DNA from: Candidatus Altimarinota bacterium
Lineage (GTDB): Bacteria; Patescibacteriota; Gracilibacteria; 1-14-2-50-48-13
DNA: 64,000 bases
Direction: 5' to 3'
Assembly (NCBI GenBank): GCA_046314355.1
Contig: JBKBWQ010000001.1
Span: forward strand, 160,001-224,000
A program made the translations under genes and the position numbers. Shown one piece after another: positions 20,503-62,201 of the stretch. A model generated the notes under the pieces. The model had not been told where the DNA came from, did no database searches, and saw only the letters and a list, made by a program, of their open reading frames with translations. The number at the start of each line of letters is the position of its first letter. Position 1 is the first letter of the stretch.

Positions 20503-20615
20503 GTAATTAAGTTATTGGTAATTAAGTAATTGAGGCTCATAATTCGGCTGCAATCATTGAGCTCAATTACTTAATTATTGAGCCCAATTATGTGAGCCCC
20601 AATGACTCGAGCCCC
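20503..20615. repeat. Palindromic TAATTGGGCTCAA-unit element, copy A (empty)
   Basis: Degenerate ~13-bp units in inverted arms; 20538-20577 is the reverse complement of 52265-52304 at 38/40 nt. Confidence 0.85.
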
Positions 20616-22742
20616 TTACTTCGTCTTCATCTCGTGCACCCCATCCCAATCTTTCTCGGGTGGATTCTTTATATATTCTTCGATGCGGGATTTATATAGT
20701 TTTAAGACAGAATCATTAGGATGTATTTTTATCAGCCGAGCCAAATGCTTCTTTGCTTCAACAAATTCTTTTGCTAGATAAAGTTCATATACTTTCTCAA
20801 AATCTTGTATGTACTTAAGTAGGGGTGTGTCAGCAAGAGATCTCTCTTCAATGAGTTCATATATTTGAATTGGCTGATTTTTTCCTTTTACTTTAATACG
20901 GTCAAGTATTCTAAATACAAATTCTTTTTCTGAGAGAATCTTTGTATTTTCACTGACGCATATTTCTGTACCATATACTTTATTTACTCCTTCCAGCCTT
21001 GAGGCTAGATTTACCGTATCTCCGATCACTGTATAATCAAAACGTTTCTTAGAGCCTATATTACCTACTACCATGTCTCCAGAAGCGATACCAGTACGAA
21101 TACCAACTCCTGCAAAGGTGTTCATAGTCTCTTCATCGGTTACAAGCTTGTTCATTTCCTTATGCATAGACAGAGCGCTTCGGCAGGAGAGTACTGCATG
21201 TTCTTTGAGATCAATTGGTGCCCCCCAAAATGCCATAATGGCATCTCCAATATACTTATCAAGTGTGCCTTCATATTTTAGAATGATGGAGGTCATCCGC
21301 TCAAGGTAGACATGTAAAAAGTCTACTACTTCTTCAGGAGTACGTGTTTCCGAGATCGTAGTGAAGCCTGCAATATCAGTAAATGAGACTGACATATGTT
21401 TCTTCTCTCCACCCAGTGATATCATGGAGGGATGGTCAATAATCTTCCGTACTACTTTATCTGAGACATAGTGAGAGAAGGCAGCGGTTATCTTGTTCTT
21501 AGTACGTTCTTCACGAATATATTTATAAATAATTACGGTTATAAATGTAAGAAGCAGAGCAAGAGGAGGGAACAGGGTATTAAGAACAATCTGTAGTTCA
21601 TTAAAAAACCATAAAGCAGCTACAATATATCCAGCCATAAGCAGCACCATACATATTCCGCTTACCCACGGACGCATACGGTAGAAGAGGAGAGATGCAA
21701 AAATACTGAGTAACAGCAGAATAAAAAATTCTATATATATCGGCACAGACTGAAGTCCTTTATTTGTAAGCATAGTCTCAATTGCATTTGCATGGAGCTC
21801 TACACCGGGCATTAATGTTCCAAAGGATACAGGAGCTGAGACTTCATCGTGAAGTCCAGCATTCATTTCTCCAATAAGAACAATTTTATTTTTAAAGAGT
21901 TCTGGGGAGAAGTCATTATTGTAAACTTTTACGAAAGATACAGAAGGTATACTATTTGCAGGTCCAAAGAAGTTTGTATAAAGATATTCAGTTTCCATGG
22001 GAATAATAATTGGACCATAATTCTTTCCAGTATCGGGGTTTTTTATTTTATCCTTGAGTATAACTAGTGATTTTTCAACTGCAGTTATCTCTGAAGAAGA
22101 GAGATCAAAAAATCTTCTAATGATTTCAAGAGAAAAACTGTTCTTGATGAGATCTGAATTTACTTTAAGTGGTATGTTTCTAACTGTTGCATCTGTATCA
22201 AGCGGCACATAGACGCTTCCTAGACTCATTGAAGTGCTTTTAGAATCATAGATGGTATTTACAGGTATAAGAGCAGGAGTGCCTTCCTTGGCGGCAAGTA
22301 CGATGTCTGGGTGCAGTGCGATTTTTTTTCCAAGCTCCTTATCGTCATTTGCTAATATTTCTTTTAATTTTTCTTCGTTCTCATCGCCCTCAAATACTCC
22401 TGTAAAAGCCTCATTTGCAGGTTCAGTAAAAAGCACATCTATTCCTATCACTTTTGCACCAGCGTTCTGAAGGTTTTGTACCACTTGAGCAAAATAAGTC
22501 CTTCTCCAGTTTTGCCACCGGCCTAGACCTCCTTCTGACTGCGCTTTTAGACTTTCCTCATCTATTTTTACCACCACTACATCTCCTGTATGATAACTGG
22601 TCTGATAGGAGTAGAGAAAATTACTGATCTTTAAATGCCATGAAGTAAAACCTCCAGCAAGTTCTACAGCAAAAAGAAAAATGCTGATTAAAAGAGCAAT
22701 GAAAGATATTTGGAAGATACGTGATTTTGAAGAGGCTTTCAT
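20616..22742 (-). CDS. CHASE2-domain class III adenylate/guanylate cyclase
   Basis: VVVKIDEES, AKVIGIDVLF, MPGVELHA, 3 TM helices, FTDIAGFT, DKYIGDAIMAFWGAP, GDTVNLASRLEG. Confidence 0.95.
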   Translation of the reverse strand: MKASSKSRIFQISFIALLISIFLFAVELAGGFTSWHLKISNFLYSYQTSYHTGDVVVVKIDEESLKAQSEGGLGRWQNWRRTYFAQVVQNLQNAGAKVIGIDVLFTEPANEAFTGVFEGDENEEKLKEILANDDKELGKKIALHPDIVLAAKEGTPALIPVNTIYDSKSTSMSLGSVYVPLDTDATVRNIPLKVNSDLIKNSFSLEIIRRFFDLSSSEITAVEKSLVILKDKIKNPDTGKNYGPIIIPMETEYLYTNFFGPANSIPSVSFVKVYNNDFSPELFKNKIVLIGEMNAGLHDEVSAPVSFGTLMPGVELHANAIETMLTNKGLQSVPIYIEFFILLLLSIFASLLFYRMRPWVSGICMVLLMAGYIVAALWFFNELQIVLNTLFPPLALLLTFITVIIYKYIREERTKNKITAAFSHYVSDKVVRKIIDHPSMISLGGEKKHMSVSFTDIAGFTTISETRTPEEVVDFLHVYLERMTSIILKYEGTLDKYIGDAIMAFWGAPIDLKEHAVLSCRSALSMHKEMNKLVTDEETMNTFAGVGIRTGIASGDMVVGNIGSKKRFDYTVIGDTVNLASRLEGVNKVYGTEICVSENTKILSEKEFVFRILDRIKVKGKNQPIQIYELIEERSLADTPLLKYIQDFEKVYELYLAKEFVEAKKHLARLIKIHPNDSVLKLYKSRIEEYIKNPPEKDWDGVHEMKTK

Positions 22743-22836
22743 GGAGAGATATTATATATGGAAAAATACTATTCCATATGTTGAATAATCATTTCCACCA
22801 CTATACGTATTTTACAAGAATTTGAAACATCTTGTC

Positions 22837-26416: not shown

Positions 26417-26986
26417 ATGAGTCAGATGAAAACAGCGGCGCTATTTATAGACGCAGAAAACCTTTACTTTATACAGAAAGGATTGGGATGGGAGGTTGAT
26501 CTTCCAAAGGTATACGAATTTTTCGAAGAAAGATACAATATATACAATGCATTTTACTACACAGTAGTTGATCCTTCCAGTGAAGGATATATTGAAAAGA
26601 ATCAGTTTCTTGATACGTTGAGCCCAGTGGGCTACACGATCAGGAAGAAGATCATAAAGATCATCAAAGCAGGAGACAAGATCATCAAAAAAGGTAATTT
26701 GGATATAGAGATGGTCCTCGATATGTTTAATACCAAGGATCTCTATCAGGTCATTATACTATTTTCAGGTGATAGCGACTTCGAGCGAGCTTTAGAGCTT
26801 CTACGCACACATGGGAAGGAAATCATAGTAATCTCTTCGAGAGGATATGTATCAAAGGAACTCATGAATGCTCCTGATAAATACTACGATCTCCAGGATT
26901 TAAAAGAATACTTCAAGAAAGAGGGAACTGACAAAGCAAAAAAAGTGAATCTTGGAAAAAGAATTGGAGTGAAGAGGAGTAATTAG
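26417..26986 (+). CDS. NYN domain (LabA/DUF88) protein
   Basis: FIDAENL, KGNLDIEMVLD, LFSGDSDF. Confidence 0.9.
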   Translation: MSQMKTAALFIDAENLYFIQKGLGWEVDLPKVYEFFEERYNIYNAFYYTVVDPSSEGYIEKNQFLDTLSPVGYTIRKKIIKIIKAGDKIIKKGNLDIEMVLDMFNTKDLYQVIILFSGDSDFERALELLRTHGKEIIVISSRGYVSKELMNAPDKYYDLQDLKEYFKKEGTDKAKKVNLGKRIGVKRSN

Positions 26987-27125
26987 GCTCAAGTAATTGG
27001 ACGCACATCATTGGGGCTCAATAATTAAATAATTGGGCTCTATTTTTGTATGTATAATTATTTGCGTCTTATGATTGAATGATTGCAGCCCAATAATACG
27101 CGCCCTAATTATCGAGCCCAATTAC
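26979..27125. repeat. Palindromic TAATTGGGCTCAA-unit element, copy B (empty, ~40-bp AT-rich centre)
   Basis: Left arm 26979-27040, right arm ~27081-27125; 26993-27019 matches 62088-62114 at 26/27 nt. Confidence 0.85.
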
Positions 27126-27327
27126 TTTGCTTCTTTCTTCCTTCACTTGACAAAACATTTTTTTACATTATTATTTCCTCGATTTCAAAATCAGAAAGGA
27201 GAAGCTTGGTGGGACAATATCAAGCTTCTTTTTTTATATTTTACCTGTTCGTCAAGGGTACAGAATATCAAAAAAGATGGAGGTGAGGTATAATAGTATG
27301 AATACATTTATTCATAGCTGATAGAAC

Positions 27328-36464: not shown

Positions 36465-36522
36465 AGGAAAAAGTGAAAAAAGTTATCATCATGATATTAA
36501 GGAAAAATAGAAAGTTTGAAAG

Positions 36523-37072
36523 GTAATTAAATAAGAAAATCATTAGGCTCAATCATTAGGCTCAATAACTGTTAGTATTATTGAACAACAGATCTTTATT
36601 GATAAAGAATAATTATTATGGATAGTAAGATATTATAATAAGAGATTATGACTGTAATTCTACTTAAGGATTTTAAACCATACCAAAATGCGCTTATTTT
36701 AAGTAGTAATGCTTGGAAGGTTTATAATAAGTTATCTACTCAATGTAAATTTCATCCAGGAGGACAATTTATTAGAAGTGTTGACTCTATTGGAGCAAAT
36801 ATTGCAGAAGGCTATGGACGATATCACTATTCGGATAAAAATAAATTTTACTACAATGCTATAGGATCTTTAACTGAAGTGTACTTTTGGCTTGATATAC
36901 TTAGAGATAGGGAATTTGTACTTATACCACAGTTATCTATTATTCAAGATCAGCTAAATGAACTTTTACACATATTAAATAAAATGATTTTAGATAATAA
37001 ATCATTAAAGAATTTTAACAGTAGATAATTATAAATAATTGAGCCCAATAATGTGCGCCCAATATTGAGCCC
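36523..37072. mobile_element. Putative 'loaded' element (copy C): inverted repeat arms enclosing a four-helix-bundle gene
   Basis: Left arm has AATCATTAGGCTC x2 (36538-36563); right arm taattgagcccaataatgtgcgcccaatattgagccc (37036-37072) is in inverted orientation; mobility is inferred. Confidence 0.6.
36648..37028 (+). CDS. Four-helix bundle protein (23S rRNA IVP-like family)
   Basis: QFIRSVDSIGANIAEGYGRY...KFYYNAIGSLTE signature. Confidence 0.92.
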   Translation: MTVILLKDFKPYQNALILSSNAWKVYNKLSTQCKFHPGGQFIRSVDSIGANIAEGYGRYHYSDKNKFYYNAIGSLTEVYFWLDILRDREFVLIPQLSIIQDQLNELLHILNKMILDNKSLKNFNSR

Positions 37073-38554
37073 TTATTTCTTCAACACCCCATTATCCAGA
37101 TACCCCAACGGATCCACATGTTTTCCGTCCTGGAAGACTTCAAAATGCAAGTGTGCTCCTGTGGTCATCCATCCTGCTCCGGCTGTCCCAGGGGTACCTC
37201 CGGAGAGTCCTATGATGTCTCCACGTTTGACTAGATCACCTGCGGTTACTAGGATCTTGCTTACGTGACCGTAGAGAGTCATGACACCTCCATTGTGAGC
37301 AACCATGATATAGCTGTATCCAAGACCGCTGTCTTTTACCTTGGTTACATATCCGTCAGCTGGAGAATGGATCTCGCTTGCCTGAGGTGCAGGTATGTCT
37401 ATGGCGCTATGAGCGACTCCAAAGGTATTCACATAGCTTGAATCGTGGAAATATGCGGTTATACCTCTTAGCGGTGGAACCGGCCAATCAAGACCGAGTT
37501 TACCATTTGTACCTTCACCAAGCTGTGCAAGGATCTTTGCACGTTCTGCAATTTCTTCAGGTGAAAGAGAGCTGCTGGCAATATTTTTCTGAAAAGCCTC
37601 AAGTTTAGTTTCAATTTCCTTGATGCTTTCCTGCTGAAGGAGAACTTCTTTCTGGATCTCTTCCTGTAGTTTTCTGTTTTCTTCAACGAGAATCTCAAAA
37701 TTTTTCTGTTCACCCTGGGTTCTCTCTAAAAGCAGACGTTTACTTTCCTTCTGCTGACTTAGAGTCTGCTGAGCAATAGAGAAGGACTTTTGTAGTTCCG
37801 CTAGACGCACCTGATCGTTTGTAAGCTGTTTTTTTCTGATATTTAAAAGGAGATCTACGTCCTGCAGATCTGCTAGGATATCGCTTCCGCTTTTACGAAG
37901 GATGGTTGCATATTTATTTGCAGTTAAAATGTCATTTATACCATTTTGAGTCACAAAGTAGGACACATCATTTGAAATATTCTTTTCAGGTGCAAAATAA
38001 ACCTGATTCTGTTTATAGAGAAGTTCTACATAGGTAGTAACAATTCTATCCTGTTCCTTGCCTGCAATTTCCGTAAGATTAATTTTTTCATAATTTTCAG
38101 TAACATCCTGTTCTTTTTCTTGTATCTGTATCTGTGTATTCCGTATTTGAAGCTTTGTAAGTTCTATCTCGCTATCAAGAAGTGCAAGCTCATTTGTGAG
38201 GGAGACAATATTTTTCTTGAGACCTTCAATTTTCTGCTGATAATTATTGATATCAGCAGTTATTTGAGTAAGTTCTGATACCCGGGAATCAAGCTTATTC
38301 TTTTCGTTATCAAGCTCTGTCTGAGAATAGAAAAGTTTTGAATTCCAGTTCTTCAGTACTTGACTCTGACGTGCGTTCAAGCGGTTTACTAGATCTTTTA
38401 TCTCCTTCTCTGGATCTGTCTGTGCTGAAGTCACTGAGCCTTGAGCGTGAACTGGGAAAGATAGAGAAAAAATATCTGTCCAAAACAGGGAAAAAAGGAT
38501 CAGGCTCAGAGTCAAATATGTGAATTTCTTTTTCATGTCGGGTATTATAAACAT
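37073..38554 (-). CDS. Coiled-coil M23 peptidase (EnvC-like / murein hydrolase activator)
   Basis: Signal peptide, long coiled coil, HSAID, YGH, TTGAHLHFEV. Confidence 0.88.
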   Translation of the reverse strand: MFIIPDMKKKFTYLTLSLILFSLFWTDIFSLSFPVHAQGSVTSAQTDPEKEIKDLVNRLNARQSQVLKNWNSKLFYSQTELDNEKNKLDSRVSELTQITADINNYQQKIEGLKKNIVSLTNELALLDSEIELTKLQIRNTQIQIQEKEQDVTENYEKINLTEIAGKEQDRIVTTYVELLYKQNQVYFAPEKNISNDVSYFVTQNGINDILTANKYATILRKSGSDILADLQDVDLLLNIRKKQLTNDQVRLAELQKSFSIAQQTLSQQKESKRLLLERTQGEQKNFEILVEENRKLQEEIQKEVLLQQESIKEIETKLEAFQKNIASSSLSPEEIAERAKILAQLGEGTNGKLGLDWPVPPLRGITAYFHDSSYVNTFGVAHSAIDIPAPQASEIHSPADGYVTKVKDSGLGYSYIMVAHNGGVMTLYGHVSKILVTAGDLVKRGDIIGLSGGTPGTAGAGWMTTGAHLHFEVFQDGKHVDPLGYLDNGVLKK

Positions 38555-41705: not shown

Positions 41706-41796
41706 AATTTCTAAACATAAATGTTAAAGCTCCCACATATTACGGGAGAAAAAGAAAGAGTAAAGAGGAAGGAGGGGGATAGTTGGAGAGTAAATG

Positions 41797-41899
41797 GTAA
41801 TTAAGCAGTTAAGGGCTCGTTATTGGGCTCAATAATTAGGCGCTAATAATTGAACTCAATAATTGCAGCCCAATTACCGAGCCCCAATTACTTAATGAC
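41797..41899. repeat. Palindromic TAATTGGGCTCAA-unit element, copy D (empty)
   Basis: gtaattaag...ttattgggctcaataatt...attgcagcccaattaccgagccccaattacttaatgac; purine-rich left and pyrimidine-rich right flanks. Confidence 0.85.
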
Positions 41900-42066
41900 T
41901 CTCTTACTCAATTACTTTTTTACTTTCTATCCATTTTCTCCCTCACTTCTTTTAAAAAACTATTGCAAAAACGAATTTCTAGAGTATCTTTGTAGAGCAT
42001 ATTTAAAGAAGGGCGCTCAATATATAAAAATTAACGGTATTACTTTTCTAACATTTACACACACGG

Positions 42067-43036: not shown

Positions 43037-43080
43037 AATTAGAGTAGACAATATTTTCTATTTTTTCGGAATTTTATCCT

Positions 43081-44933: not shown

Positions 44934-44942
44934 AAGTATTAT

Positions 44943-46253: not shown

Positions 46254-46405
46254 TTCTTCGCTTCTCAGCGAAGCTACGAATGGCACAGCCAGAATGGAAT
46301 GAATCTTCGCAGGCGAAGATTTTTTTTAATATAGCGAAGAATGTCCCTCGTAGCCTACACCTGAATTACAAATATTTGATATTCTTTGTGGCGTAGAGGG
46401 ATTCC
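46250..46405. repeat. tRNA-3'-linked palindromic element
   Basis: gccattc-ttcgct-tctc-agcgaa-gctac-gaatggc; aatcttcgc-ag-gcgaagatt; distal agcgaagaatg and tcgtagc are complementary to the proximal part. Confidence 0.45.
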
Positions 46406-46612
46406 CAAACATAAAGCATTGGTGTATTTTGGTACGCCTCTAAGTTCATCGTAATTCTTTTTTATAATAGAATATAAAAATTTATCCCTAAGTACTAACT
46501 ACTCCCACTATCACTCATACTCCGAGCCAAAAAGTACTCTCATAAAATGACAATGTACATTGATACAGAGTTACATTACAGTATGCATATATCCCGTTAT
46601 CATATTATAACT

Positions 46613-46939
46613 ATGAAAAAATTTCTCGTTCTCTACTGTGCAACTAAGGCTACTCTTGAGCAGTGGAATTCTATGACACAGGAAGAAGGTCAAGCTGGTA
46701 TGGATGCATGGGCACAGTGGCAGGAAGCGCATAAAAGTGAATTAGTTCAGCCTGGAAATCCTGTAGGAAAAAATACCCGTCTCACTAAAGAAGGTACAGA
46801 AGCTACTTCTAATGAAGTGTGCGGTTACTCAGTGGTGGCTGCTGAATCAAAGGAAGCCGTATCCGCACTTCTTGCTGATAATCCTCATCTCATGCAGACA
46901 GGGACGTATCTTGAAATCATGGAATTGATGGAAATATAA
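46613..46939 (+). CDS. YCII-related hypothetical protein
   Basis: MKKFLVLY...W..W...GNPVG...GYSVVAAES...NPHL; ATG 46613 preferred. Confidence 0.7.
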   Translation: MKKFLVLYCATKATLEQWNSMTQEEGQAGMDAWAQWQEAHKSELVQPGNPVGKNTRLTKEGTEATSNEVCGYSVVAAESKEAVSALLADNPHLMQTGTYLEIMELMEI

Positions 46940-46948
46940 TATCAACTT

Positions 46949-46980
46949 AAAAGGGATAGTAAATATGCTATCCCTTTTTT
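46949..46980 (+). terminator. Intrinsic terminator
   Basis: aaaagggatagta-aata-tgctatccctttttt. Confidence 0.75.
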
Positions 46981-47059
46981 GTATTATAATTTTATAATTC
47001 TCTTTCTACTTACTAAAAGTTAGTATATACTCGAAAGGCTTAATTTTTAAAGTAAATAT

Positions 47060-47575
47060 ATGTCAAATTTATATGTTGGTACTAAATACATAACTCTTGG
47101 TGCATTAGAGAATATGATTGCTCTTATTCGCAAGATAGAGACACAGCTTGAATCTAAAGGAATTTCTGAGGCTGAACTTTTGGATGCAAGACTTGCTCCA
47201 GATATGTTTCCTCTCGTCAAACAGATCCAGATTATGTCCGATAACGCAAAGGGATTGAATTCAAGGTTATCAGGAGTAGAAAACCCTTCTATGGCTGATG
47301 AAGAAAAAACTTTTGAAGAACTTATTGTGAGACTTGAGAATACACATCAATTTATTGCAGGAATAGATGATGAAAAGTATGCAGATGCTGATACACGCCA
47401 GATTGTAATGCCTTATTTTCCAGGAAAATACCAGACTGCCGAAGACTATGTAACGGATTTTGGAATTGCTAACTTCTACTTCCACTTTGTGACAGCCTAC
47501 GCAATTTTGAGAATGAAGGGATTTGATATTGGAAAGACTGATTTTGGAGGAACGCTTCATTTGAGAGATCTTTAA
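47060..47575 (+). CDS. DUF1993 (DinB-like) family protein
   Basis: LLDARLAPDMFPL..Q, NFYFHFVTAYAILR..G..IGK.DF. Confidence 0.9.
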   Translation: MSNLYVGTKYITLGALENMIALIRKIETQLESKGISEAELLDARLAPDMFPLVKQIQIMSDNAKGLNSRLSGVENPSMADEEKTFEELIVRLENTHQFIAGIDDEKYADADTRQIVMPYFPGKYQTAEDYVTDFGIANFYFHFVTAYAILRMKGFDIGKTDFGGTLHLRDL

Positions 47576-47597
47576 TATTCTCTTAAGAATCATTCCT

Positions 47598-48053
47598 ATG
47601 AAAAGATCATACTATAATTCTCCTGTGGGCATCCTTGAGCTGCAGGAGGATCAAGGACATCTGATAGGACTGTATTTTAGAGATGCTCAGGGTATTGAAA
47701 ATAATAACTCCGATCTTTTTATAGAAGTGAAAAAACAATTAGATGAATACTTTGTGGGAAAGAGAAGTACATTTACCCTTCCATTAAAGATTACAGGTAC
47801 ACCATTTCAGGAAGGTGTCTGGAATGCTCTTCTAGATATTCCTTATGGAGAAACAAGATCATACTTGCAACAGGCACAGTATATACAGAATCCCAAGGCT
47901 GTAAGAGCAGTTGGAACTACAAATGGGAAGAATAAAATTAGTATTATTATTCCATGTCATAGAGTAATTGGAAAAGATGGCAGTCTTACCGGCTATGGAG
48001 GTGAGTTATGGAGAAAAAAGTGGCTGCTTGAACATGAAAAAAAGTACAGATAA
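47598..48053 (+). CDS. ogt: Methylated-DNA-protein-cysteine methyltransferase
   Basis: IPYGETRSY, RAVG, IPCHRV, LTGYGG. Confidence 0.93.
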   Translation: MKRSYYNSPVGILELQEDQGHLIGLYFRDAQGIENNNSDLFIEVKKQLDEYFVGKRSTFTLPLKITGTPFQEGVWNALLDIPYGETRSYLQQAQYIQNPKAVRAVGTTNGKNKISIIIPCHRVIGKDGSLTGYGGELWRKKWLLEHEKKYR

Positions 48054-48054
48054 G

Positions 48055-48089
48055 AAAAAAGGACTCAATCTTAAAGATTAGTCCTTTTT
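48055..48089. terminator. Bidirectional intrinsic terminator
   Basis: aaaaaggact(c)aatct-taa-agattagtccttttt. Confidence 0.75.
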
Positions 48090-48260
48090 ATATAACTTCT
48101 AGTGCATAGAAGCAGGCATATGATATGAATCTATTTCATCCCAAATGTCTGGCTTCTATACTGAAATGCTTGTCTCCACTCATCACGTCTTAGGTGATAG
48201 TCTCGATGAAAGCGGACGTATAATAATGTAGAACAATAAAATGTCAATGAAATAATATAC

Positions 48261-48947
48261 TTAATTATTCTGCATGTCTGATTGCATGGAAATAAGCAAA
48301 GTATTCATTTGCTGAGTCGTTAAAGAAATATCTTTATATGAGAATAATGCTCTCATGCTTGCTACAGGAATATCTGAAGTCTCAACGTATTGATAAAATG
48401 GCATAAAGTCATTCCAAAAACATACAAATTCCTTTTCATCTGTTTTGCTTAAAGTTGCGCATTGATCTGCTGCCACTTCAACTCTGGCCGGGAAATACTG
48501 TTTTAAACTAGAGATCATTTTATCGGGATCTGCAGATGTAAATTTAGGATTCGTTGAGCTTAGCTCTATAGTTGGTTCTGAAAGACTTCTTTCACGTAAG
48601 GCTATTCTTCTTACAGATTGTGCTGCAACACGTATAAGTGTAGCTGTCTCATCTTGCGAGAAGATCTTCTTATTTCTAGAGATACATGAGCCACTTCCAG
48701 AGAGATTTGAGCAAAGAATGCTATCACTAGTATCTTCTCTAAGAAATATAAATTCTTTATCCTGCTGTACTACATATAATTTTGATGCCTGGCTTGCATC
48801 ATTCTGATCAATACCCATGATAAATCTGCCAGGTGTTCCAAAGGCATAACTAGTATCAGGAGAGAGAGAAGCAGGCAGCGAATTATTTGTGCAGGCTGTA
48901 ACAATGACTAAAGCTGCTAAAAAGAAAATATTTCTTAGAATATGCAT
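48261..48947 (-). CDS. Putative lipoprotein
   Basis: MHILRNIFFLAALVIVTAC lipobox. Confidence 0.7.
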   Translation of the reverse strand: MHILRNIFFLAALVIVTACTNNSLPASLSPDTSYAFGTPGRFIMGIDQNDASQASKLYVVQQDKEFIFLREDTSDSILCSNLSGSGSCISRNKKIFSQDETATLIRVAAQSVRRIALRERSLSEPTIELSSTNPKFTSADPDKMISSLKQYFPARVEVAADQCATLSKTDEKEFVCFWNDFMPFYQYVETSDIPVASMRALFSYKDISLTTQQMNTLLISMQSDMQNN

Positions 48948-49121
48948 AAAATGAGACTAATAAATTTACTTTATGATAAGAGGATTGAGGTAGAAAGCAA
49001 GAGAAAGAGGAGAAGCCAAATTAATTAGCTTACCCCTTAAGCTCTTGCTTACTTATTCCTTCTTTACTCTGCTTCCCAAATACGATATAAATAGACCAAT
49101 TTCTAGTTACTATTCATACAT

Positions 49122-49496
49122 ATGACGTATAAGCAGAAGGTATATATACTTCAAGTGGCGATAGCATTTATTTTTGCCTGGTTTGGAGTAGAAAAGCTTT
49201 TGTTTCCAGAGAGCTGGGCACTTTTTGTTCCTAGCTGGTTTACAACATATGTAAAAATAAATGTTACTCAGCTTGTGCTTCTCTGTGGTGCTGCTGAAAC
49301 AGTGCTTGCATTATGGATACTTATACCATGGAAAACTCATTGGGCAGCGTATACAGCATTTGTATACTTTATCCTTATTATTTCTGTTACAGGCATTTCA
49401 CATGCCGGGATAAGAGATATTTCTCTAGCTTTAAGCACACTTTCCTTAGCGCTCTTCACTACGCCTCCTAAAATAGATCTTCATTTTTCAAGATAA
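49122..49496 (+). CDS. DoxX family membrane protein
   Basis: F.WFGVEKL, G..E, IRDI.L; four TM helices. Confidence 0.75.
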   Translation: MTYKQKVYILQVAIAFIFAWFGVEKLLFPESWALFVPSWFTTYVKINVTQLVLLCGAAETVLALWILIPWKTHWAAYTAFVYFILIISVTGISHAGIRDISLALSTLSLALFTTPPKIDLHFSR

Positions 49497-50356
49497 TGCT
49501 ACCTGTTCGCTATAGATTTTGGGATGTACCATTTCATACACCTCTAAGAGATGAAGTGACAGAAGTATTTGCGCGTATGCTAAAGGAAGAAAAAATGCAT
49601 ATGGTCTTTACGCCGAATCCTGAGATCATGCTGGTTTCTGAAGATTTGCCAGAATATAAAGAAGTACTGCAGTCTGCATATTGGAATCTCCCCGATGGGC
49701 ATGGGATTTTATGGGCATCAACTTTTCTTGAAAAAACTAAAAACATAAGAAATAAACTCTTCATTATTTTGATTTTTCTTAAAACCTACGCTGATCTTGT
49801 AATAAATAAAAAAGCTCTACAGAGAATAATACCTGAGACTGTTACTGGAGCAGATACATTTTTTAAAGTACATTCTTTATTTGTAGAGAGAAGGATTCCT
49901 GTCTTTTATTTTGGAGGGGAAGATGGAGTAGATAAAGAGATTGGAGCAACGATGGAGAAAAAGTATCCTGGACTTCAAGTCGCAGGAAGCTGTGGAGGAT
50001 TTCCCTTTAGATCTAAAGAAGAAAATGAAGCAATACTTTCTAAAATTGAAGATGCTGCTCCTGAGGTAGTCTTTGTCGCTCTTACATTTCCGCGTCAGGA
50101 AATGTGGATACAGCAGAATAGTCCAAGATTGGAGAAGGCTGGAGTAAAGGTAGCAATGGGAATTGGAGGGACCTTTAATTTTGCTGTGGGAAGAATAAAA
50201 AGAGCCCCTCAATGGATGCAGAATCTGCATATTGAATGGCTCTGGAGACTTATAATGGAACCTAGGCGTATGAGGAGAATACTAAAGGCAGTATTATATT
50301 TTCCTTGGAAAGTTTTACAAAAGAAGCTGAATGCTTACTCTTCTTTTTCTGAGTGA
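49496..50356 (+). CDS. WecB/TagA/CpsF family glycosyltransferase
   Basis: TPNPE, PDG.GI.WA, PRQEMWI, GIGGTF, RAP.WMQ...EWLWRL..EP.R. Confidence 0.93.
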   Translation: MLPVRYRFWDVPFHTPLRDEVTEVFARMLKEEKMHMVFTPNPEIMLVSEDLPEYKEVLQSAYWNLPDGHGILWASTFLEKTKNIRNKLFIILIFLKTYADLVINKKALQRIIPETVTGADTFFKVHSLFVERRIPVFYFGGEDGVDKEIGATMEKKYPGLQVAGSCGGFPFRSKEENEAILSKIEDAAPEVVFVALTFPRQEMWIQQNSPRLEKAGVKVAMGIGGTFNFAVGRIKRAPQWMQNLHIEWLWRLIMEPRRMRRILKAVLYFPWKVLQKKLNAYSSFSE

Positions 50357-50583
50357 TCCTTCTTACTGCCTTTGAAAAAATTCATCACCGTATAGGCTAG
50401 AGTTGCAGGCATGGTAACATATGTATTTACATTATCCATAAGCTCTTCTCCCTTCGTAGAGAGATTCTTCAGTGAGAAAACAAATGCAGCAAGTGCCCCA
50501 ACAAACACAGAGCACATTATAAAGAAAAGTCCAAGTCCAATGGATAATACGAGAATCAATACGTCCTGCATAGTTGTGATCAT
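50335..50583 (-). CDS. Small membrane protein
   Basis: ATG 50583 gives MITTMQDVLILVLSIG..., one long TM segment. Confidence 0.6.
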   Translation of the reverse strand: MITTMQDVLILVLSIGLGLFFIMCSVFVGALAAFVFSLKNLSTKGEELMDNVNTYVTMPATLAYTVMNFFKGSKKDHSEKEE

Positions 50584-50662
50584 AAGTATAATAGGTTCAG
50601 GATAACAATAACTAAGTATAAGAGAAAGTAAGAGGGATGGCAAACTCTTATTGTTGGCATTT

Positions 50663-52090
50663 TTAAGAGAGCTTTTTCTGTACTATTTCACCGACGATTT
50701 TAGGATTTGCACTTCCACCTGATTTTTTCATAGTTTGTCCTACAAAAAAACCTAGAAGAGTAGTCTTTCCACCTCTAAACTCATCTGCCTGTGCAGGAAA
50801 ATCTTTTATAACTTCATCTACAAAAGCTTCGATGGCTTTCGTATCTGAGACTTGAAGTAGTCCCATTTCTGACACTAACACTTTAGGATCTTTACCATTT
50901 TCAATCATTTTTTCTAGTACTTCTTTACCGCTTAAGCTTGATATTTCTTGTTCTTTTACCATAGAAACGACCATCGCCATTTCTTTTGGTCCAAAAGGAA
51001 GTTCTTTGAGATGAATTTTCTTTTCGTTTATAAACCCAAGCAGAATAGATACTATCCACGATGATGAGAGTTTTGGTTCCTTTGTATACTCTACAACTGC
51101 TTCAAAGAAGTCAGCAAGTTCGAGATCTGCAATAAGTACTGCTGTTATATCATGTTCTAGATCATAACTAGAGAGATAGCGTTCTTTCTTTGCGTGAGGC
51201 AGTTCAGGAAGCTCGCTTCTAATCTCCTCGATTTGTTCTTTAGTGAATGTAAGAGGTGGGATATCAGGTTCTGGAAAATATCTATAATCTGCAGCTTCTT
51301 CCTTTGATCTCTGAGATATAGTGATTTCTTTTTCATCATCCCAACCTCTAGTTTCTTGAGTTATTTTTTCACCTTTTTCGATCATCTTTGTCTGCCTGTC
51401 TATCTCAAAGATAATTGCTCTTTCCATGGATCTAAAAGAATTTAGATTTTTAATCTCTACTTTTGTACCAAAAGGAGCATCTTCATTCTCGCGTAGAGAG
51501 ATATTGACATCAAAACGCATCATTCCTTTCTCCATATCCACCTCTGACGCACCAGATGCCCGTAGAGTCTGCTGCATAATACGTGCATAGAGACTTGCCT
51601 CCTCCATACTTCTCATATCTGCTCTTGATACGATTTCCATAAGAGGAGCTCCTGCTCTGTTATAATCTACAAGACTTCCCCCTGATGTATGTGAGAGTTT
51701 TCCAGCATCATTTTCTAAATGCAGACGCTCAATTCCAATTCTCTTTTTTGTACCGTCTTTCTTCTCTATCTCTATGTAGCCATTCTCAGCAACTGGCTGA
51801 TCATACTGTGATATCTGATATCCCATTGGCAGATCGGGATAAAAGTAGTTTTTCCGGTCAAATTTTGAAAACTCATTTATAGTACAGTTGATGGCAAGTG
51901 CTGCTCTTACTCCTAACCGTATTGCATCCTGATTCGGTTTCGGAAGCATTCCAGGATGTCCAGTACAAATAGGGCAGATATTTTTGTTTGGCAGTTCAGG
52001 GACTGCTTCGTTGAGACAACGGCAAAAGAGCTTAGTCTTTGAATTGATACGAGCATGTATTTCAAGACCGATTACAGGAGAAAGAGGCAT
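50663..52090 (-). CDS. gatB: Asp/Glu-tRNA amidotransferase subunit B
   Basis: IGLEIH, FDRKNYFYPDLP, DYNRAG.PL.EIV, DYRYFPEPD. Confidence 0.97.
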   Translation of the reverse strand: MPLSPVIGLEIHARINSKTKLFCRCLNEAVPELPNKNICPICTGHPGMLPKPNQDAIRLGVRAALAINCTINEFSKFDRKNYFYPDLPMGYQISQYDQPVAENGYIEIEKKDGTKKRIGIERLHLENDAGKLSHTSGGSLVDYNRAGAPLMEIVSRADMRSMEEASLYARIMQQTLRASGASEVDMEKGMMRFDVNISLRENEDAPFGTKVEIKNLNSFRSMERAIIFEIDRQTKMIEKGEKITQETRGWDDEKEITISQRSKEEAADYRYFPEPDIPPLTFTKEQIEEIRSELPELPHAKKERYLSSYDLEHDITAVLIADLELADFFEAVVEYTKEPKLSSSWIVSILLGFINEKKIHLKELPFGPKEMAMVVSMVKEQEISSLSGKEVLEKMIENGKDPKVLVSEMGLLQVSDTKAIEAFVDEVIKDFPAQADEFRGGKTTLLGFFVGQTMKKSGGSANPKIVGEIVQKKLS

Positions 52091-52209
52091 AGTCAGATTT
52101 GGAAAAATTATCGTGCATTATTATAAAGGAAGAAGAGAAAACAAAAAAGTAAAAAAAACGATTTTCTTGCCGGTTTTTAAGTGCATGATAGAGTGTAGGG
52201 GAGAAGTGA

Positions 52210-52318
52210 GTAATTGGACTCAATAATTAGGCTCAATAATTGGGCTCAGTAATTATGGCTCACATAATTAAGTAATTGCGCTCAATGATTGCAGCCCAAT
52301 TATGTGCACCCAATCACT
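52210..52318. repeat. Palindromic TAATTGGGCTCAA-unit element, copy E (empty)
   Basis: Clearest tandem units: taattggactcaa taattaggctcaa taattgggctcag, then inverted units attgcagcccaatta tgtgcacccaatca. Confidence 0.9.
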
Positions 52319-52355
52319 GATCCTCCCATCCTAACCTTAAATTTTACACTATTGT

Positions 52356-52655
52356 ATGAATTATCCGTCCTTTGAAAGTGAAATGACAGAATTTCTTGGA
52401 GATATGGGCTTTAATGATCTTCCTAAGGAGAAACAGCAGGAAGTACTCGCTCAGCTTAAAGCACTAGTGGAAGAAGAAGTGGAGTTTGAACTTGATCAAA
52501 TTGTTCCAGACACTGAAAAAGATCACTTCGCAGGTCTATCCAAAGAAGAACAGGATGAATATCTAGATGAACTTGGAATTGATAGGGAAGAGATAGCATA
52601 CCAAAAAACTCAGGCTCTGAAGACTGAATTACAGAAAGGTGAAGAGAGTGAGTAA
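52356..52655 (+). CDS. Small acidic hypothetical protein
   Basis: 99 aa, Glu/Asp-rich, followed by a terminator. Confidence 0.65.
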   Translation: MNYPSFESEMTEFLGDMGFNDLPKEKQQEVLAQLKALVEEEVEFELDQIVPDTEKDHFAGLSKEEQDEYLDELGIDREEIAYQKTQALKTELQKGEESE

Positions 52656-52685
52656 ATAAAAATCCCCGTGATCGGGGATTTTTAT
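52656..52685. terminator. Bidirectional intrinsic terminator
   Basis: ataaaaatccccg-tgat-cggggatttttat. Confidence 0.85.
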
Positions 52686-55304
52686 TTACTTCTTAGAAAA
52701 ACTAAGCTCTTCATTTTTTAGATCTACTTTGATGGTACTGCCGCTTAGATAACTTCCATCTAATAGTTTGATTGCAAGTGAATTAATAAGTTCCTGCTGA
52801 ATTATTCTTTTTAGCGGACGAGCTCCAAAGAGAGGATCATAGCCCTTTTGACCTAGGTAGAGTTTTGCTTTTTCACTAAGAGAGAGAGTTATATTTCTCT
52901 CCTTTAATCTCTCTGATAATTCTAGAAGCTGAAGATCGACAATTTTTATAATTTCCTCTTTTCGAAGTGCATGGAAAATAATGGTATCATCGATTCGGTT
53001 GAGGAATTCAGGACGGAACTGTTTCTGTAGGATTCCCATGATCTCCGCGTATTGGGCGGATTCTAAACTCTGTCTTTCTATATCTGATTCGGTGGCGGCT
53101 ATCTTTGGCGTATAGTGCTGTATAACAGCACTTCCCAGATTTGACGTCATAATTATTACTGTATTCTTGAAGTTTACAGTTCTCCCTTTAGCATCTGTGA
53201 GCCTTCCGTCATCGAGTACTTGTAATAGTATATTAAATACTTCAGGATGAGCTTTTTCGATCTCATCAAAGAGAATCACAGAATAGGGTTTTCTACGGAC
53301 TGCTTCCGTAAGCTGTCCTCCCTCATCATAGCCGACATATCCTGGAGGTGAACCTATCATTTTTGATACCGCATGAGATTCCATATATTCACTCATATCG
53401 AGACGAATCATATGTTCCTCGTCATTAAACAAGAATTCTGCTAAGCTTTTTGCAAGCTCTGTTTTTCCTACTCCTGTGGGACCTAAGAATAAGAAAGAAC
53501 CTTGCGGTCTCCTGGGATCTGATAATCCGCTCCTGGCACGGCGTACTGCGTGAGCTATAGCAGAGATAGCATTCTTTTGTCCTATGACACGTTTTTCAAG
53601 ATATGATTCCATGTTGGAAAGTTTTTCAGTTTCACCCTCTACAAGTTTGGTCACAGGAATACCTGTCCATCTTGATACAACTTTGGCAATATCTTCTTCG
53701 GTGACCTCTTCCCGCAGTAGGGAATGTCCATCTTCTTGTATCTTTTGAAGTTCAACTGTTTTAGCAGTAATTGTTTTTTCCAGTTCTGGTATAGTGCCAT
53801 ACCTGAGCTGCGCTGCTGTATTAAGATCTCCGTCACGCTCAGCTTTTTCTGCCAGTACGCGCTTTGCATCTAGATTTTCTCTTAACTTATTGAGATCCTG
53901 GATGATATGTTTTTCTCCAAGCCATACATGTTCTATCTCTCTTGCTGACTCCTGAATATCAGCAAGTTCCTTTTGGATATCCTTTAATCTCTTTTGTGAC
54001 GCTTCATCTTTTTCTTTTCTTAAAGCTTCCTGTTCAATTTCGAGTTGCATGATTTTTCTTTTTTTCTGTTCAAGTTCGGCAGGCATGGAAGTTACTTCCA
54101 TTTTGAGTGAAGAAGCAGCTTCATCCATGAGATCGATTGCTTTATCCGGAAGCCTTCTATCAGGAAGATAACGGGTAGAAAGTACTGCAGAGGCAACTAT
54201 AGCAGGGTCAGAAATCCGTATACCATGGTGAATCTCATATTTTTCTTTAATACCTCTCAGGATTGAGATAGTATCTTCCATTGTAGGTTCATCCACCATA
54301 ACTGGCTGAAAACGTCTTTCCAAAGCTGCATCTTTTTCTACGTACTGTCTGTATTCTTTTAGAGTCGTAGCACCTATCACATGGATTTTTCCTCGAGCTA
54401 GGGCAGGTTTTAGAAGATTGCCGGCATCAGTGGATCCTTCTGATGCACCAGCTCCCACAATAGTATGGAGCTCATCTATAAAGAGTATAATGTTTCCTTG
54501 GGATTTCTCTACTTCTTGAAGTACCGACTTCAGTCTTTCTTCAAATTCTCCGCGGTACTTTGCTCCAGCTATAAGTGATCCCATATCAAGGACAAGAAGC
54601 TTTTTATTTCTAAGAGTATCAGGAACATCGCCGCTTACTATTCTTCTCGCAAGTCCTTCAGCTATAGCAGTCTTACCAACTCCCGGATCACCTACGAGAA
54701 CAGGATTGTTTTTAGTTCTTCTTGAGAGGATCTGGATAGTTCTTCTGATTTCGTCATCCCGTCCGATTATTGGATCAATTTTTCCAGTGCGGGCTTCTTC
54801 AGTAAGATCTGTTGTATATTTTTTCAACGCCTGGAGTTTTGTCTCGGGATCCTTATCTGTGATATGCTCTCCACCTCTAAGTGTCTTGATTGATGCATGT
54901 ACAGCTTTGGAATTGATTCCAAAATGCTCCAACATGTCTTTAACTGTACTCTGAGTATTTGTAATAGCTAAGAGTAAATGCTCAGTACTTATATATTCAT
55001 CACCAAATTGTTTTGCTTCACTTTCAGCAGTCTCAAGTACAGTTTTAAAATTTGCTTCCATAAAAAGCTGACGCTCTCCCTGTATAGTTGGAAGTGCAGA
55101 AATAGTCTGCTGTAGTTTAAGTACAATGTCTGCAATCGGGGATCCTATTTTTTCTAGAATTGGTTTCACTAAACCGCCTTCCTGCTGAAGTAGAGAAAGT
55201 AATAGATGGCTTAATGTAATCTCACTATGAGAGAGTTTATTGGCAGAATCTTGTGCTTCCTGAACTGCCTCTAAAGCTTTGATGGTAAATTTTTCTAGAT
55301 TCAT
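52686..55304 (-). CDS. clpB: Chaperone ClpB
   Basis: Two AAA+ modules ([16 protein letters not shown]), M-domain coiled coil, GARPLKR. Confidence 0.97.
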
Positions 55305-55370
55305 AGACAGAATATTTATGTGTTGTATTAATGCTTATATTATATCCAAAATCCAAGTACTTGTAAAAAA

Positions 55371-56675
55371 TTATTTTAGCTTATCATGAGATTCTTCAGA
55401 ATAGATCGTACCAAGGATCACAATGAGTAGTATAAACCCAGTCCACGAAGTGAGCCAGAAATGATCTATAAGTGCATACAAAAAGAAGGTCATAATGATT
55501 CCTAGTTCTGAGAAAAGGAGTTTTCTATGAATATACATCCTTTGAAAAAAGGAGAAGAAAATGTTTAAAAAGAATATAATAGCTGATATGCCTCCTATAA
55601 TGCCTAGCTCATTTAATAAAAGCATAAAGAAAGAATGAACAGGCTGATATTCCCATGGAAAGAAGAGAGGTAGTGAAGGATGATTGAGATGGAGTATAAA
55701 GTTTCCAAGCCCTATACCTAGAGGGTGAGACAATAAAACCTGAATTGATGCTTTGAGTAAAAGAAACCTGTCTGTAAGAGTAGTAGAATCAAAGAACAGG
55801 AATATACTGCTGAATAGAAGAAAGAATACAGCTGCAAGCATCAGTATAGCCCATAGTATTCTCAGGATATCTTTCTCAATTACTAGAAGGCTACTTGTAC
55901 GTTCTTGTAGTGATGTAAAGATATGAGATGTCTTCGCTGAGCGGATGCATACCCAGACCACCAGGGTACTGAGTAATATAAAATATGCCGTTTTTGAAAC
56001 GCTGGCTAAGATTCCTGCCAGTATCAAAAAGGTAATAGAGTTATATTGCCATGACGTAAGAAAAGAGAGGCTCTTTTTAAAATAGAATATAAGAAACAAT
56101 GAAAGAGAAAGAACACCTGCTGCAATATTTGGGTGAAGGAAAGTTCCATATGCTCTAATATGATTTTCTCCAGAGATATGAAATTTTGCTGTGGTAAGAT
56201 CCTCAGCTGAGAGTACTGGCTCTTTGAAGAACCATAATCCAAGACTTGAGTTTAGTAGGAACTGCAACACCATCAATATGGATTGAAATAGAGCTCCGAA
56301 GACTACTGTGTATAAAACAGTTTTGTGCAGACTTCTATCCGAGTAGAGGATATAAAAGAGTAATATTCCCTCCAATACATGTCTTGATCGTAGAATATGA
56401 AGCCATGGATCACTGGCGAAGAAATAGCTCGTCACTATACCTATAAATATTCCTAAAATACTGTAGATCTGAAGAGATGGTATTTTGATATTCTTTGTAT
56501 TTTGAATAAATACTAATCTAGCAAAATAACTGAAAAAAAAGAGGAGAAGTAAGATTTCACTTATATGGAGATAAGAGCGTGTCCAAATCGCATCTGTACC
56601 GAGAGCAATAGCCTCTGAATTCGAATAAATCAGGGTTTCAAATTGGAACATGGATAGAAAAATGCTACCTGCCAA
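55371..56675 (-). CDS. O-antigen ligase (Wzy_C) family membrane protein
   Basis: RAYGTFLHPN, HPLGIGLGNF, PVHS...ELGIIG; start uncertain. Confidence 0.8.
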   Translation of the reverse strand: MAGSIFLSMFQFETLIYSNSEAIALGTDAIWTRSYLHISEILLLLFFFSYFARLVFIQNTKNIKIPSLQIYSILGIFIGIVTSYFFASDPWLHILRSRHVLEGILLFYILYSDRSLHKTVLYTVVFGALFQSILMVLQFLLNSSLGLWFFKEPVLSAEDLTTAKFHISGENHIRAYGTFLHPNIAAGVLSLSLFLIFYFKKSLSFLTSWQYNSITFLILAGILASVSKTAYFILLSTLVVWVCIRSAKTSHIFTSLQERTSSLLVIEKDILRILWAILMLAAVFFLLFSSIFLFFDSTTLTDRFLLLKASIQVLLSHPLGIGLGNFILHLNHPSLPLFFPWEYQPVHSFFMLLLNELGIIGGISAIIFFLNIFFSFFQRMYIHRKLLFSELGIIMTFFLYALIDHFWLTSWTGFILLIVILGTIYSEESHDKLK

Positions 56676-60253: not shown

Positions 60254-62008
60254 TTAAGATGTAAAAGGTGAATGTATTGTATTTCGGAGCTGGGAAAGCT
60301 GCTCGCCTGTTTTAATCATACCCTCAGTATTTTTTTCTTTCTGATAGTATGCAAGCTTTAGAAGGAGTTTATCCTTTAATTTATGCTGGAGAAGTATAAG
60401 TTTCTCCTTGAGTGTAGTGCGCGCTATATCGATATTGTGCGTGATATTTGCTTCATCCAGATAAAGAAGAAGTACTTCTACCCTTGTTTTCACGTCGTCG
60501 TGAAGGAGTGTATGTATCTGGGAAATATCGCCCGAAAAAGTATATTCGTTTTTTATAAGCTTGTAAACATGATTTGGGAGCTCTCCGTCTAGTTCATCGA
60601 GGTATAGATGGTCATGAATTTCGCTGTAAAGCTCGGGGTAAGCAATAAGGATACCTGTAAAGATGGCTTCTGGAGTAGAAAAGTGTGTTTGGTTGAAAAG
60701 CTCTGCACTCACATTTTCATGTATTTTTGGAGTTTTTATTTTTTTAAATTCTTTTGTTACTGCCTCTACAGTACTCATCATTTGGTATGCTACCTGTTTT
60801 AAGTAATGCTCTTGAGCGATCTGACTTGTTAATAGTTTTACTAATGGGAGATAGAGAGTCACAATACGCTTTTTACCTTCAATAGTTTCCGGATCAAATT
60901 TACTTAGTAAATGAGCAAGTACAAAATCATGAAATGGCTTTGCATCTTCTGTCAGTTTTAAAAGCTCATCCTTCGAATATTTCTGAAAGAACTCGTCTAC
61001 GTCTTTTACATTATGCGCTTTGAGCGAAATAGGGCGTACTTCTATATCTTGGGGGATAACTACTTCTGCATTTCTAAGTGTTGCCTGCCAGCCGGCATTA
61101 TCATTATCGAAGAGAAAATAGAATGTGGAAGTATGACGTTTCAGGAGCTGTACTTGTTCTTTCGTAAACGCTGTGCCCGAACTTGCTACAATATTATGAA
61201 TACCTGCCTGCCATGCAGATAACACGTCCATGTATCCTTCTACTATGATGACAGATCCTGCTTCACGGATCGCATCTTTTGCAAAGGAGAGACCATAGAG
61301 AACATTTGATTTATGATAAATTGGTGTCTCTGGAGAATTAAGATATTTAGGTTCTCCATCACCAAGGATTCTGCCGCCAAAGGCAACAATATCCCCCAGA
61401 TGATTCGTAATAGGGAACATAATACGTCCCCGGAACTTGTTATAATGTTTCGCATCGTTTAATGCGAGCAGCCCTACTTTTAAAAGCTCCTCTGTCTCAT
61501 ATCTGTGTTTCTCACGAAGTTCTCTCCAAAGATCATCATAGGAATTTGGAGCAAATCCTATTTTAAAATCCGTAATAGTCTGCTCGTTGAGACCACGTTT
61601 TAGTAAATACTCCTTTGCTTCTGGAGAATTCTGCAGCTGCTCTTGGTAGAATTCAGTAGCAGTATGCATTATTTCGAACCACCGTTCCTTATCAGATTTC
61701 TTAATGGATGAAATTTTTTGAGGCTGATACTCAATCCCGGCTTTCCACGCTAGAAACTTCACCGCCTCAGGAAAATCCAGGCGTTCCACTTCCATTACAA
61801 ATTTGAAGATATCCCCGCCTTTCTGACATCCGAAACAATAGGCAATCTGCTTATCAGGACTGATAATAAATGATGGGCTGCTTTCCTTATGAAAAGGACA
61901 GAGAGCTTTAAAGCTTCTGCCGGATTTACGTAGTTCTACATATTCACTGACAACGGTGACTATATCGAGCTTTGCCTTGATGTCTTCTACGATATCCTGA
62001 CCTGACAT
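60254..62008 (-). CDS. dnaG: DNA primase
   Basis: CPFH..CFGC zinc finger, [21 protein letters not shown]. Confidence 0.97.
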
Positions 62009-62087
62009 GAAATATGATTTTAAAACAAGTAATGAGAGTATACTGTTGTTTTGTCAAATTGGAAGAGGAAGGTGGAGAAGTGAGGGG

Positions 62088-62201
62088 GTAATTGGGCGCA
62101 CATCATTGGGGCTCGGTAATTAGGGCGCAATTATTGGACTTAATAATTGCAGCCTAATAATGAGAGCCCAATTATACGCACCCAATGACCGAGCCAATTA
62201 C
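62088..62201. repeat. Palindromic TAATTGGGCTCAA-unit element, copy F (empty)
   Basis: gtaattgggcgcacatcattggggctcggtaatt...gcacccaatgaccgagccaattac; purine/pyrimidine flanks. Confidence 0.88.

Follow-up and report, generated by a model that had tools for sequence, protein, structure and literature searches.

What are the short palindromes that recur between the genes of a small bacterial genome, and what does the one copy that is split by a gene say about their origin? The question is raised by a 64,000-nt stretch of a Candidatus Altimarinota bacterium, hereafter the window, which covers positions 160001-224000 of contig C1 in genome G000 (assembly 1.69 Mb, of which C1 makes up 1.62 Mb; 38% GC; rated 98% complete; 27 further small contigs). 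Six copies of the repeat, here called A to F, lie in it, and one of them, copy D, encloses a gene of the family PF05635, which takes its name from proteins of 23S rRNA intervening sequences. We put the chance at about 55% that the palindromes are gene-less derivatives of a selfish PF05635 cassette resembling such intervening sequences. In its full form, two inverted arrays of short tandem units would make up a long stem whose loop carries a small PF05635 four-helix-bundle gene, and one lineage of arms would have multiplied without the gene to the roughly 56 intergenic copies of G000.

At all six sites the left part consists of tandem units near TAATTGGGCTCAA and the right part of the reverse complements of those units. 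All six copies are present where a sequence-only reading of the window had placed them, and the unit of about 13 bp that it described is real: at up to two mismatches TAATTGGGCTCAA was matched 20 times in the window, with all 20 matches inside the six places, while shuffled sequence gave a mean of 2.36 and a maximum of 6 and none of 100 shuffles reached 20. Tandem Repeats Finder (TRF) returned periods of 13/14 and 8 inside the copies. On RNA folding the five intact copies form long imperfect hairpins (z-scores of -3.0 to -5.6 against dinucleotide shuffles, with 0 to 2 of 200 shuffles folding as well), so that shuffled sequence, proposed earlier as a control, reproduces neither the unit count nor the folds. 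The blocks said to be shared between copies were likewise recovered, 44 nt at 93% complementarity between A (20535-20578) and E (52264-52307), and 35 nt at 91% identity between B (26993-27027) and F (62088-62122). The length of 100-150 bp given in that reading is too short, as a profile search extends every intact copy and the stems continue into outer arms made of 8-nt units.

Across the genome, the unit scan yielded 220 matches in 54 clusters of at least two units. A profile built from 52 copies found 59 loci, among them three weak, newly found ones; as three others represent the second piece of an element, the total comes to about 56 non-coding elements of about 100-220 nt. On the 1.62-Mb contig this amounts to one element per 28 kb, a lower density than the one per 10 kb expected from the window. 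Forward units precede inverted units in 54 of 54 clusters and the reverse order never occurs; since units never alternate in orientation, the suggested kinship with bacterial interspersed mosaic elements (BIMEs) fails. From outside to inside an element is built of an end motif of GGGCTCGAG type (in a subset), 8-nt-unit arms, 13/14-nt-unit arms and an apex. The genome contains 21 occurrences of the end motif (GGCTCRAGTAA-type), which stands in forward orientation at left array ends and inverted at right ones. The outer arms are made of GTAAGAGA, GTAATTAA and similar units or of GTAA tracts, with GTAAnnnA on the left and its complement on the right; at C1 ~405290-405335 and 637490-637530, the 8-nt units give way to repeated TTAC, which is GTAA on the opposite strand. 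The apex TAATTGAGCTCAATTA is a perfect 16-nt palindrome with 19 exact copies in the genome. Stems of the genome's elements reach about 225 nt, with minimum free energies of about -20 to -83 kcal/mol.

If A-rich low-complexity words are set aside, the genome's commonest 10-mers come from the family and from (GTAA)n tracts; AAGTAAGTAA, with 80 occurrences, ranks among them. The hairpin family is thus the commonest non-trivial repeat of G000, and it is specific to this lineage. In an Rfam scan only tRNA reached the gathering score, and none of the six matches at E-values up to 1 overlapped an element, so that the comparison with described families asked for earlier returned nothing on the elements. 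An array of the tandem interspaced guide RNA (TIGR) kind or one like the clustered regularly interspaced short palindromic repeats (CRISPR) is ruled out by the 13/14-nt period, the lack of spacers and the distribution over about 56 small dispersed sites.

The key to the nature of this family is the identity of the gene in copy D, which the sequence-only reading had left out. The arms of this copy are separated by a 380-nt open reading frame (ORF), and 7 further bp extend the stem inside the unit arms. The encoded protein matches Pfam PF05635 over the full length of the profile (positions 1-106 of 106, E=3.1e-21), as well as NCBIfam TIGR02436 (E=3.6e-22) and the PDB chain 2rld_A (E=3.6e-4). An Avd-type accessory gene of a diversity-generating retroelement was ruled out, as the genome holds no RVT_1 match. 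G000 has three PF05635 genes in all, and these lie in or beside members of three different dispersed hairpin families. At least three dispersed matches in the flanks were found for all three genes, compared with 20 of 150 control genes. The second family has 7-8-nt units (GGATAAG, GGATGAG, GAATTAAG) with their complements in the other arm and occupies about 7-8 loci; the third has ACTAGTNACTAGTGAC units (ACTAGTAACTAGTGAC..GTCACTAGTTACTAGT) at about 7 loci, and some of its copies are bounded by GGGCTCGAG as in the main family.

PF05635 genes enclosed by inverted arrays of short units also recur outside G000. Of 201 genomes in the class, 114 have matches to the family, and one of about 1 Mb has as many as 17. 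Flanks were analyzed for the best 30 loci among the matches listed for other genomes of the class, 26 of which had usable flanks. Among these 26, the gene is enclosed by inverted repeats scoring at least 30 in 11 cases, 10 of them with z above 4, and scores for direct repeats were never raised. At the same score, enclosure was seen for 3 of 424 small genes in G000 and 0 of 391 ORFs in the same-family relative G002 (3 of 815 together). The arms of these cassettes are arrays, inverted to each other, of 7-8-nt units (for example TTAGGGT, TAAGGAN, GTAAGCA and GTAGTGCT), most of which, as judged by eye, carry an inward-facing stop triplet. The units of the main family in G000 grew to 13/14 nt by adding a GGGCTC core. 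None of the 12 class PF05635 loci tested for it lies in an rRNA gene.

Gene-less relatives of such a cassette are found in the class genome G086, in which the cassette's own heptamer forms arrays at at least 17 loci. At eight of these loci the array is a hairpin without a gene, its arms 13-30 nt apart, and forward units precede inverted ones in all eight. In the heptamer search a reversed-pattern control gave 36+32 matches and the pattern itself 34+26; because the control is as high as the pattern, a second heptamer family of mirror sequence is suggested rather than chance. PF05635 matches in several class relatives contain 2-6 in-frame TGA codons, which suggests that TGA is read as a residue in part of the class; G000 itself gives long ORFs under translation table 11.

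How the copies relate to each other was analyzed by gapped alignment, since indels between 13- and 14-nt units defeat ungapped comparison. Using MAFFT with direction adjustment, the copies align on an oriented, asymmetric master. Its first half runs from the outer units through CTCGGT-type, GCGCACAT-type and CTCAAT-type units, often followed by TAATTAAG, to GAGCTC; after GAGCTC follow a CTGCAAT-type unit, then a CTCTTAT-type or GCGCACAT-type unit and then a CTCGGT-type unit. By rank CTCGGT is the outermost and CTGCAAT the innermost type, and the latter lies on one side 30 times as against 4 times on the opposite one. In a leave-one-out analysis 45 of 52 copies scored better in their assigned orientation, 37 of them by more than 10 bits, and three the other way. 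Copy A matches copy E as its reverse complement because copies have an orientation. The earlier description, that copies share blocks instead of full-length identity, is right; 358 pairwise alignments of at least 100 nt exist, the best 83-90% identical over 100-134 nt and none near-identical.

These alignments divide the earlier proposal of unit-level shuffling "rather than copy-paste" into two parts. The first part holds, because gain, loss, duplication and reordering of whole units are real, as expected for tandem arrays, with the majority order followed in 56 of 79 and 97 of 121 comparisons. The second part holds only by half, given the long colinear alignments. It is shown that the copies derive from an oriented, asymmetric master and that they have changed mostly through gain and loss of whole units. 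The same data bear on the idea that arrays were built in situ, with the two 3' ends of a break lengthened by repeated addition of short units, joined and then altered by slippage. This would fit the strict forward-then-inverted order of the 54 clusters here and of the eight hairpins in G086, and the independence of unit numbers and types between the arms: same-rank unit types match between arms in 11 of 86 cases, below the 22% expected, and left-right complementarity is no better within a copy than between copies (mean scores of 16.2 and 17.1; permutation p=0.94; shuffled control 3.4). It would not, however, yield an oriented master, an innermost unit type confined largely to one side, a 16-nt apex found 19 times exactly or long colinear alignments between distant copies, and we regard it as highly improbable. 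As the arms do not co-vary, the stem appears to be a property of the family, neither maintained nor copied within each element.

The family was not found in relatives of G000. The 16-nt apex was found in none of 40 relatives, ranging from the same family to the same class. A degenerate 20-nt apex pattern matched 20 loci in species-representative genomes and 39 in metagenome contigs, and as all 59 are single isolated apex matches with no adjacent unit, they stand at chance level. In G002, whose Frr protein is about 60% identical, the intergenic regions at five of five cleanly syntenic element sites measure 43, 78, 78, 48 and 83 nt as compared to 136, 294, 179, 205 and 209 nt in G000, and are thus shorter by 93-216 nt; three further gene pairs that are not cleanly adjacent were left out of this count. 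At one of the five sites, G001 has 6 nt where G000 has 205 nt. In 320 kb of G002 no 11-mer that passes a low-complexity filter recurs more than eight times. The absence of the elements from equivalent sites in a relative is therefore shown.

Empty sites in a relative are also what would be expected of an ordinary miniature inverted-repeat transposable element (MITE) that belongs to a lost or unassembled conventional transposon, with one copy having acquired the PF05635 gene by accident. The family consists of short, dispersed, intergenic sequences that lack coding capacity and are bounded by inverted repeats, it has an oriented master with 10-17% divergence between copies, and the 27 small contigs could hide a transposase. 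In the 98%-complete genome no match was found to rve, DDE_Tnp_1 or the TnpB zinc ribbon, the transposase families searched, and there is no signal of a target-site duplication above the control. A chance landing would moreover leave unexplained that three of three PF05635 genes sit at three hairpin families, compared with 13% of control genes, and that PF05635 genes are enclosed by inverted arrays in 11 of 26 of the best 30 class loci compared with 3 of 815 controls. A MITE with a chance passenger is accordingly judged distinctly unlikely.

Another candidate for a mobilizing enzyme is encoded in the genome itself. REPINs, built of paired repetitive extragenic palindromes (REPs), are intergenic hairpins in which two short imperfect palindromes stand in inverted order, a layout that resembles the family studied here. 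A Y1_Tnp gene of the IS200/IS605-like, or RAYT-like (REP-associated tyrosine transposase), kind is intact at C1:772701-773060 (minus strand), with a frameshifted copy at 827760-828114 (plus strand). Both copies share, however, one kind of flanking hairpin, GC-rich (CCCCGGAG...CTCCGGGG) and without relation to the AT-rich units of the family, and the nearest family copies are about 4 kb and about 6 kb away. Two near-identical copies look like an insertion sequence and not like a single-copy RAYT gene. Mobilization of REP- or REPIN-type repeats by this transposase is therefore considered very unlikely.

The position of the elements relative to genes was read from a crude gene map of 1396 ORF-genes (90.3% coding). 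In agreement with the sequence-only reading, which called the repeats essentially intergenic, 51 of 54 cluster apexes lie between called genes, and the remaining three fall in short doubtful ORFs that overlap the element itself. The apexes lie between divergent (18), tandem (26) and convergent (7) genes, as compared to 33%, 55% and 12% of the intergenic length; since the contexts match these shares, there is no preference for terminator or promoter positions. The two sides of an element differ according to the gene end they face. Among sides facing a gene 3' end (n=41) the median gap is -19 nt and the stop codon is covered by the stem in 32, whereas the median gap is +75 nt on sides facing a 5' end (n=63; Mann-Whitney p=1e-8). 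The stop codons within stems are TAA (20), TAG (11) and TGA (1), often immediately before the GGGCTC motif; among 1305 ORF-genes of G000 the numbers are TAA 907, TAG 307 and TGA 91.

Read inward, 78 of 104 arms have all three frames closed within 60 nt, a share that falls to 24% outward, on the opposite strand, and to 45% once arms are shuffled. Each unit contains a TAA, and its length of 8, 13 or 14 nt shifts the frame from unit to unit, so that the arms stop translation in any frame, and a copy can therefore adjoin or replace a gene end directly. Between same-strand genes, 17 of 20 confidently oriented copies point with the genes (binomial p=0.0026), which is only weakly explained by the replication arm (by GC skew the origin lies near 1.07 Mb and the terminus near 0.30 Mb). 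Genes between close pairs of elements look like housekeeping genes, as judged from translations alone, and composite transposons were rejected for this reason; orthologues in relatives support the identity of frr, rseP and their neighbours alone.

Such placement could mean that the elements are kept by the host, as binding arrays for a dimeric DNA-binding protein, as insulators or stabilizers of transcripts, or as translation stops between packed genes. The nearly palindromic 12-mer ATTGGGCTCAAT of the unit, repeated at a regular spacing of 13/14 bp, would suit a dimeric protein, and the inward stops, the 32 of 41 gene ends that terminate inside an arm and the direction shared with same-strand genes would all suit a host function. 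A role as a nucleoid-protein binding array, one of those suggested in the sequence-only reading, found no supporting evidence. Set against a host function are the failure to find the family in 40 relatives, the chance nature of the 59 collection and metagenome loci, a placement that follows intergenic length and arms that do not co-vary. Moreover, the elements lack the T run of a terminator, and the 16 terminator-like sites in window positions 36400-56300 all lie outside copies C, D and E. We consider a host-kept element to be unlikely.

The copies in the window illustrate these relations (Table 1). The right arm of copy A overlaps the stop-codon end of a CHASE2 adenylate-cyclase gene (20616-22742, minus strand), the left arm of copy B contains the stop codon of an upstream NYN-domain gene (ORF 26417-26986), and the right arm of copy D abuts the stop-codon end of an M23 peptidase gene (37073-38554, minus strand). 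Copy E lies between a gatB gene and a divergent 99-aa ORF. The apex of copy B (26979-27125) holds about 45 nt of AT-rich sequence without units (27040-27085), which could be the remnant of a former loop content. The sole public sequencing run matching the window DNA consists of hot-springs metagenome contigs and is the probable source of the assembly; no run of RNA reads with this DNA was found. Over window positions 36400-56300 these contigs match the repeat copies without differences, the joints listed there being cross-matches from other copies of the family, and no polymorphism at the copies could be read from them.

Table 1. Repeat copies of the window and loci of the two further hairpin families of G000. 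Positions are those of the window, or of contig C1 where C1 is given; profile scores are for plus and minus strand as indicated.
Feature	Position	Strand	Description
Copy A	20496..20638	-	Profile score 98.7 on the minus and 55.5 on the plus strand; fold z -3.0; reversed relative to the family master
Copy B	26956..27148	+	Profile score 97.0 against 64.2; fold z -3.0
Copy D, left arm	36523..36571	+	Two perfect 13-nt forward units; TRF 36538-36566, period 13, 100% matches
Copy D, loop gene	36648..37028	+	126 aa; PF05635 (23S rRNA intervening-sequence protein), TIGR02436 (four helix bundle protein)
Copy D, right arm	37033..37099	+	Three inverted units; profile match C1 197033-197099; TRF 37034-37072, period 14
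Copy C	41769..41928	+ (orientation weakly called)	Profile score 95.7 against 79.6; fold z -5.6; between divergent ybaB-like and L25 genes
Copy E	52202..52334	+	Four tandem forward units; TRF 52211-52269, period 13, 4.4 copies; fold z -4.6
Copy F	62061..62225	+	Profile score 102.0 against 81.9; fold z -4.9; between divergent genes
Second family	C1 ~5880, 416400, 572380, 804720, 860300, 1157710, 1538800; flanks of 452389-452694		Last locus: flanks of a PF05635 gene
Third family	C1 ~42630, 849105, 860633, 1107608, 1251622, 1277640, 1528927; 750075-750115		Last locus: beside PF05635 gene 749644-749952

Several observations weigh against a derivation of the palindromes from a PF05635 cassette. Only one of about 56 copies carries the gene, and this copy lacks the GAGCTC apex unit, so that the gene-less copies are not simple deletions of copy D. 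The third PF05635 gene of G000 adjoins its hairpin family and is not enclosed by it, and in the class genome G076 only three gene-less arrays were found at up to one mismatch. Likeness between copies of the main family nowhere exceeds about 92%, which gives no hint of recent spread. At the stem ends of 52 elements, direct repeats reach no greater length than in mismatched controls and never 7 nt, although the ends are fuzzy and a target-site duplication of 2-3 nt could hide in them. With arms that do not co-vary, there is no evidence of selection keeping the stem in individual copies. As RNA, one strand folds as stably as the other (-51.0 and -51.8 kcal/mol), so that RNA stability does not explain the co-orientation with genes.

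If the palindromes do derive from such a cassette, the gene-less copies would have spread by the same route as the gene-bearing form, and their specificity would probably be provided in trans by the PF05635 protein. Transcription of a copy would be predicted to give a long imperfect hairpin, a possible substrate of RNase III, for which G000 has a gene. A wider proposal, that PF05635 genes together with inverted short-unit arrays make up a widespread and undescribed class of selfish elements which includes the rRNA intervening sequences, is put forward tentatively, as a possibility with the odds against it. Were it true, each PF05635 paralogue would recognize its own unit array, as a RAYT does its REPINs, and the arms alone would have been multiplied in trans to give the roughly 56 gene-less hairpins seen here. 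The stop-bearing unit lengths of 7, 8, 13 and 14 nt, none a multiple of three, would then be an adaptation that closes every incoming reading frame and so allows harmless insertion at gene ends in very compact genomes.

PF05635/TIGR02436 is a very large family for which we know of no role outside diversity-generating retroelements, and to our knowledge the origin and mobility of rRNA intervening sequences have been unexplained since they were first described. In the literature searched, supplementary files not included, no paper was found that links PF05635 genes to dispersed palindromes of short units or describes the cassette. In G000 about 55 gene-less copies of one family occur alongside a copy with the gene, two smaller families each lie beside their own PF05635 paralogue, and there is a relative with neither gene nor repeats. 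The genome thereby provides a testable hypothesis, namely that the PF05635 protein recognizes its own unit array and that the arms are the mobile or copied part. This may account for many of the intergenic inverted arrays of short, heptamer-type units in bacteria, and for unit lengths that avoid multiples of three.

Among the closest known parallels are the intervening sequences of 23S rRNA genes. The Coxiella element is described as selfish, a stem-loop whose ends are complementary and which contains an S23p ORF; it carries tandem GACAGAT heptamers whose number varies between strains, RNase III cuts at the first repeat, and an older idea is cited by which the ORF of an intervening sequence encodes a mobility factor (PMC4990558). 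With the elements of Coxiella burnetii and Leptospira the present family shares the long stem of complementary ends, the PF05635 gene in the loop (in copy D) and short tandem repeats of variable number; the intervening sequences, too, are regarded as selfish, with their mobility unexplained and their stem an RNase III substrate (PMC4990558). Unlike them, our family is multi-copy, intergenic and outside rRNA, about 55 of its 56 members have no gene, and its units measure 13/14 and 8 nt instead of 7 nt. The 23S gene of G000 (C1:1366156-1369178) contains no unit of the family and no profile match; it spans 3023 nt compared with 2925 model positions, about 100 nt extra.

Copy scan, gene map and folding agree with the sequence-only reading in placing the family among dispersed, intergenic, hairpin-forming repeats of the MITE/REP kind. 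With MITEs, of which the Correia elements of Neisseria are an example, it has in common a length of 100-200 bp, the lack of coding capacity, inverted-repeat ends, dispersal between genes, hairpins in the transcript and empty sites in relatives. It differs from them in that no target-site duplication above the control level and, in the rve, DDE_Tnp_1 and TnpB-type searches, no partner transposase was found, and in that its whole body consists of inverted arrays of tandem units, whereas a MITE has unique sequence between short terminal repeats. Like REPs, BIMEs and REPINs it consists of short imperfect intergenic palindromes within larger inverted structures and forms lineage-specific families, but its units do not alternate as in BIMEs and its associated gene is PF05635, not a Y1 transposase. 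A further likeness is that, as in the REPIN-RAYT system, each repeat family has one protein gene: in G000, three PF05635 genes accompany three hairpin families.

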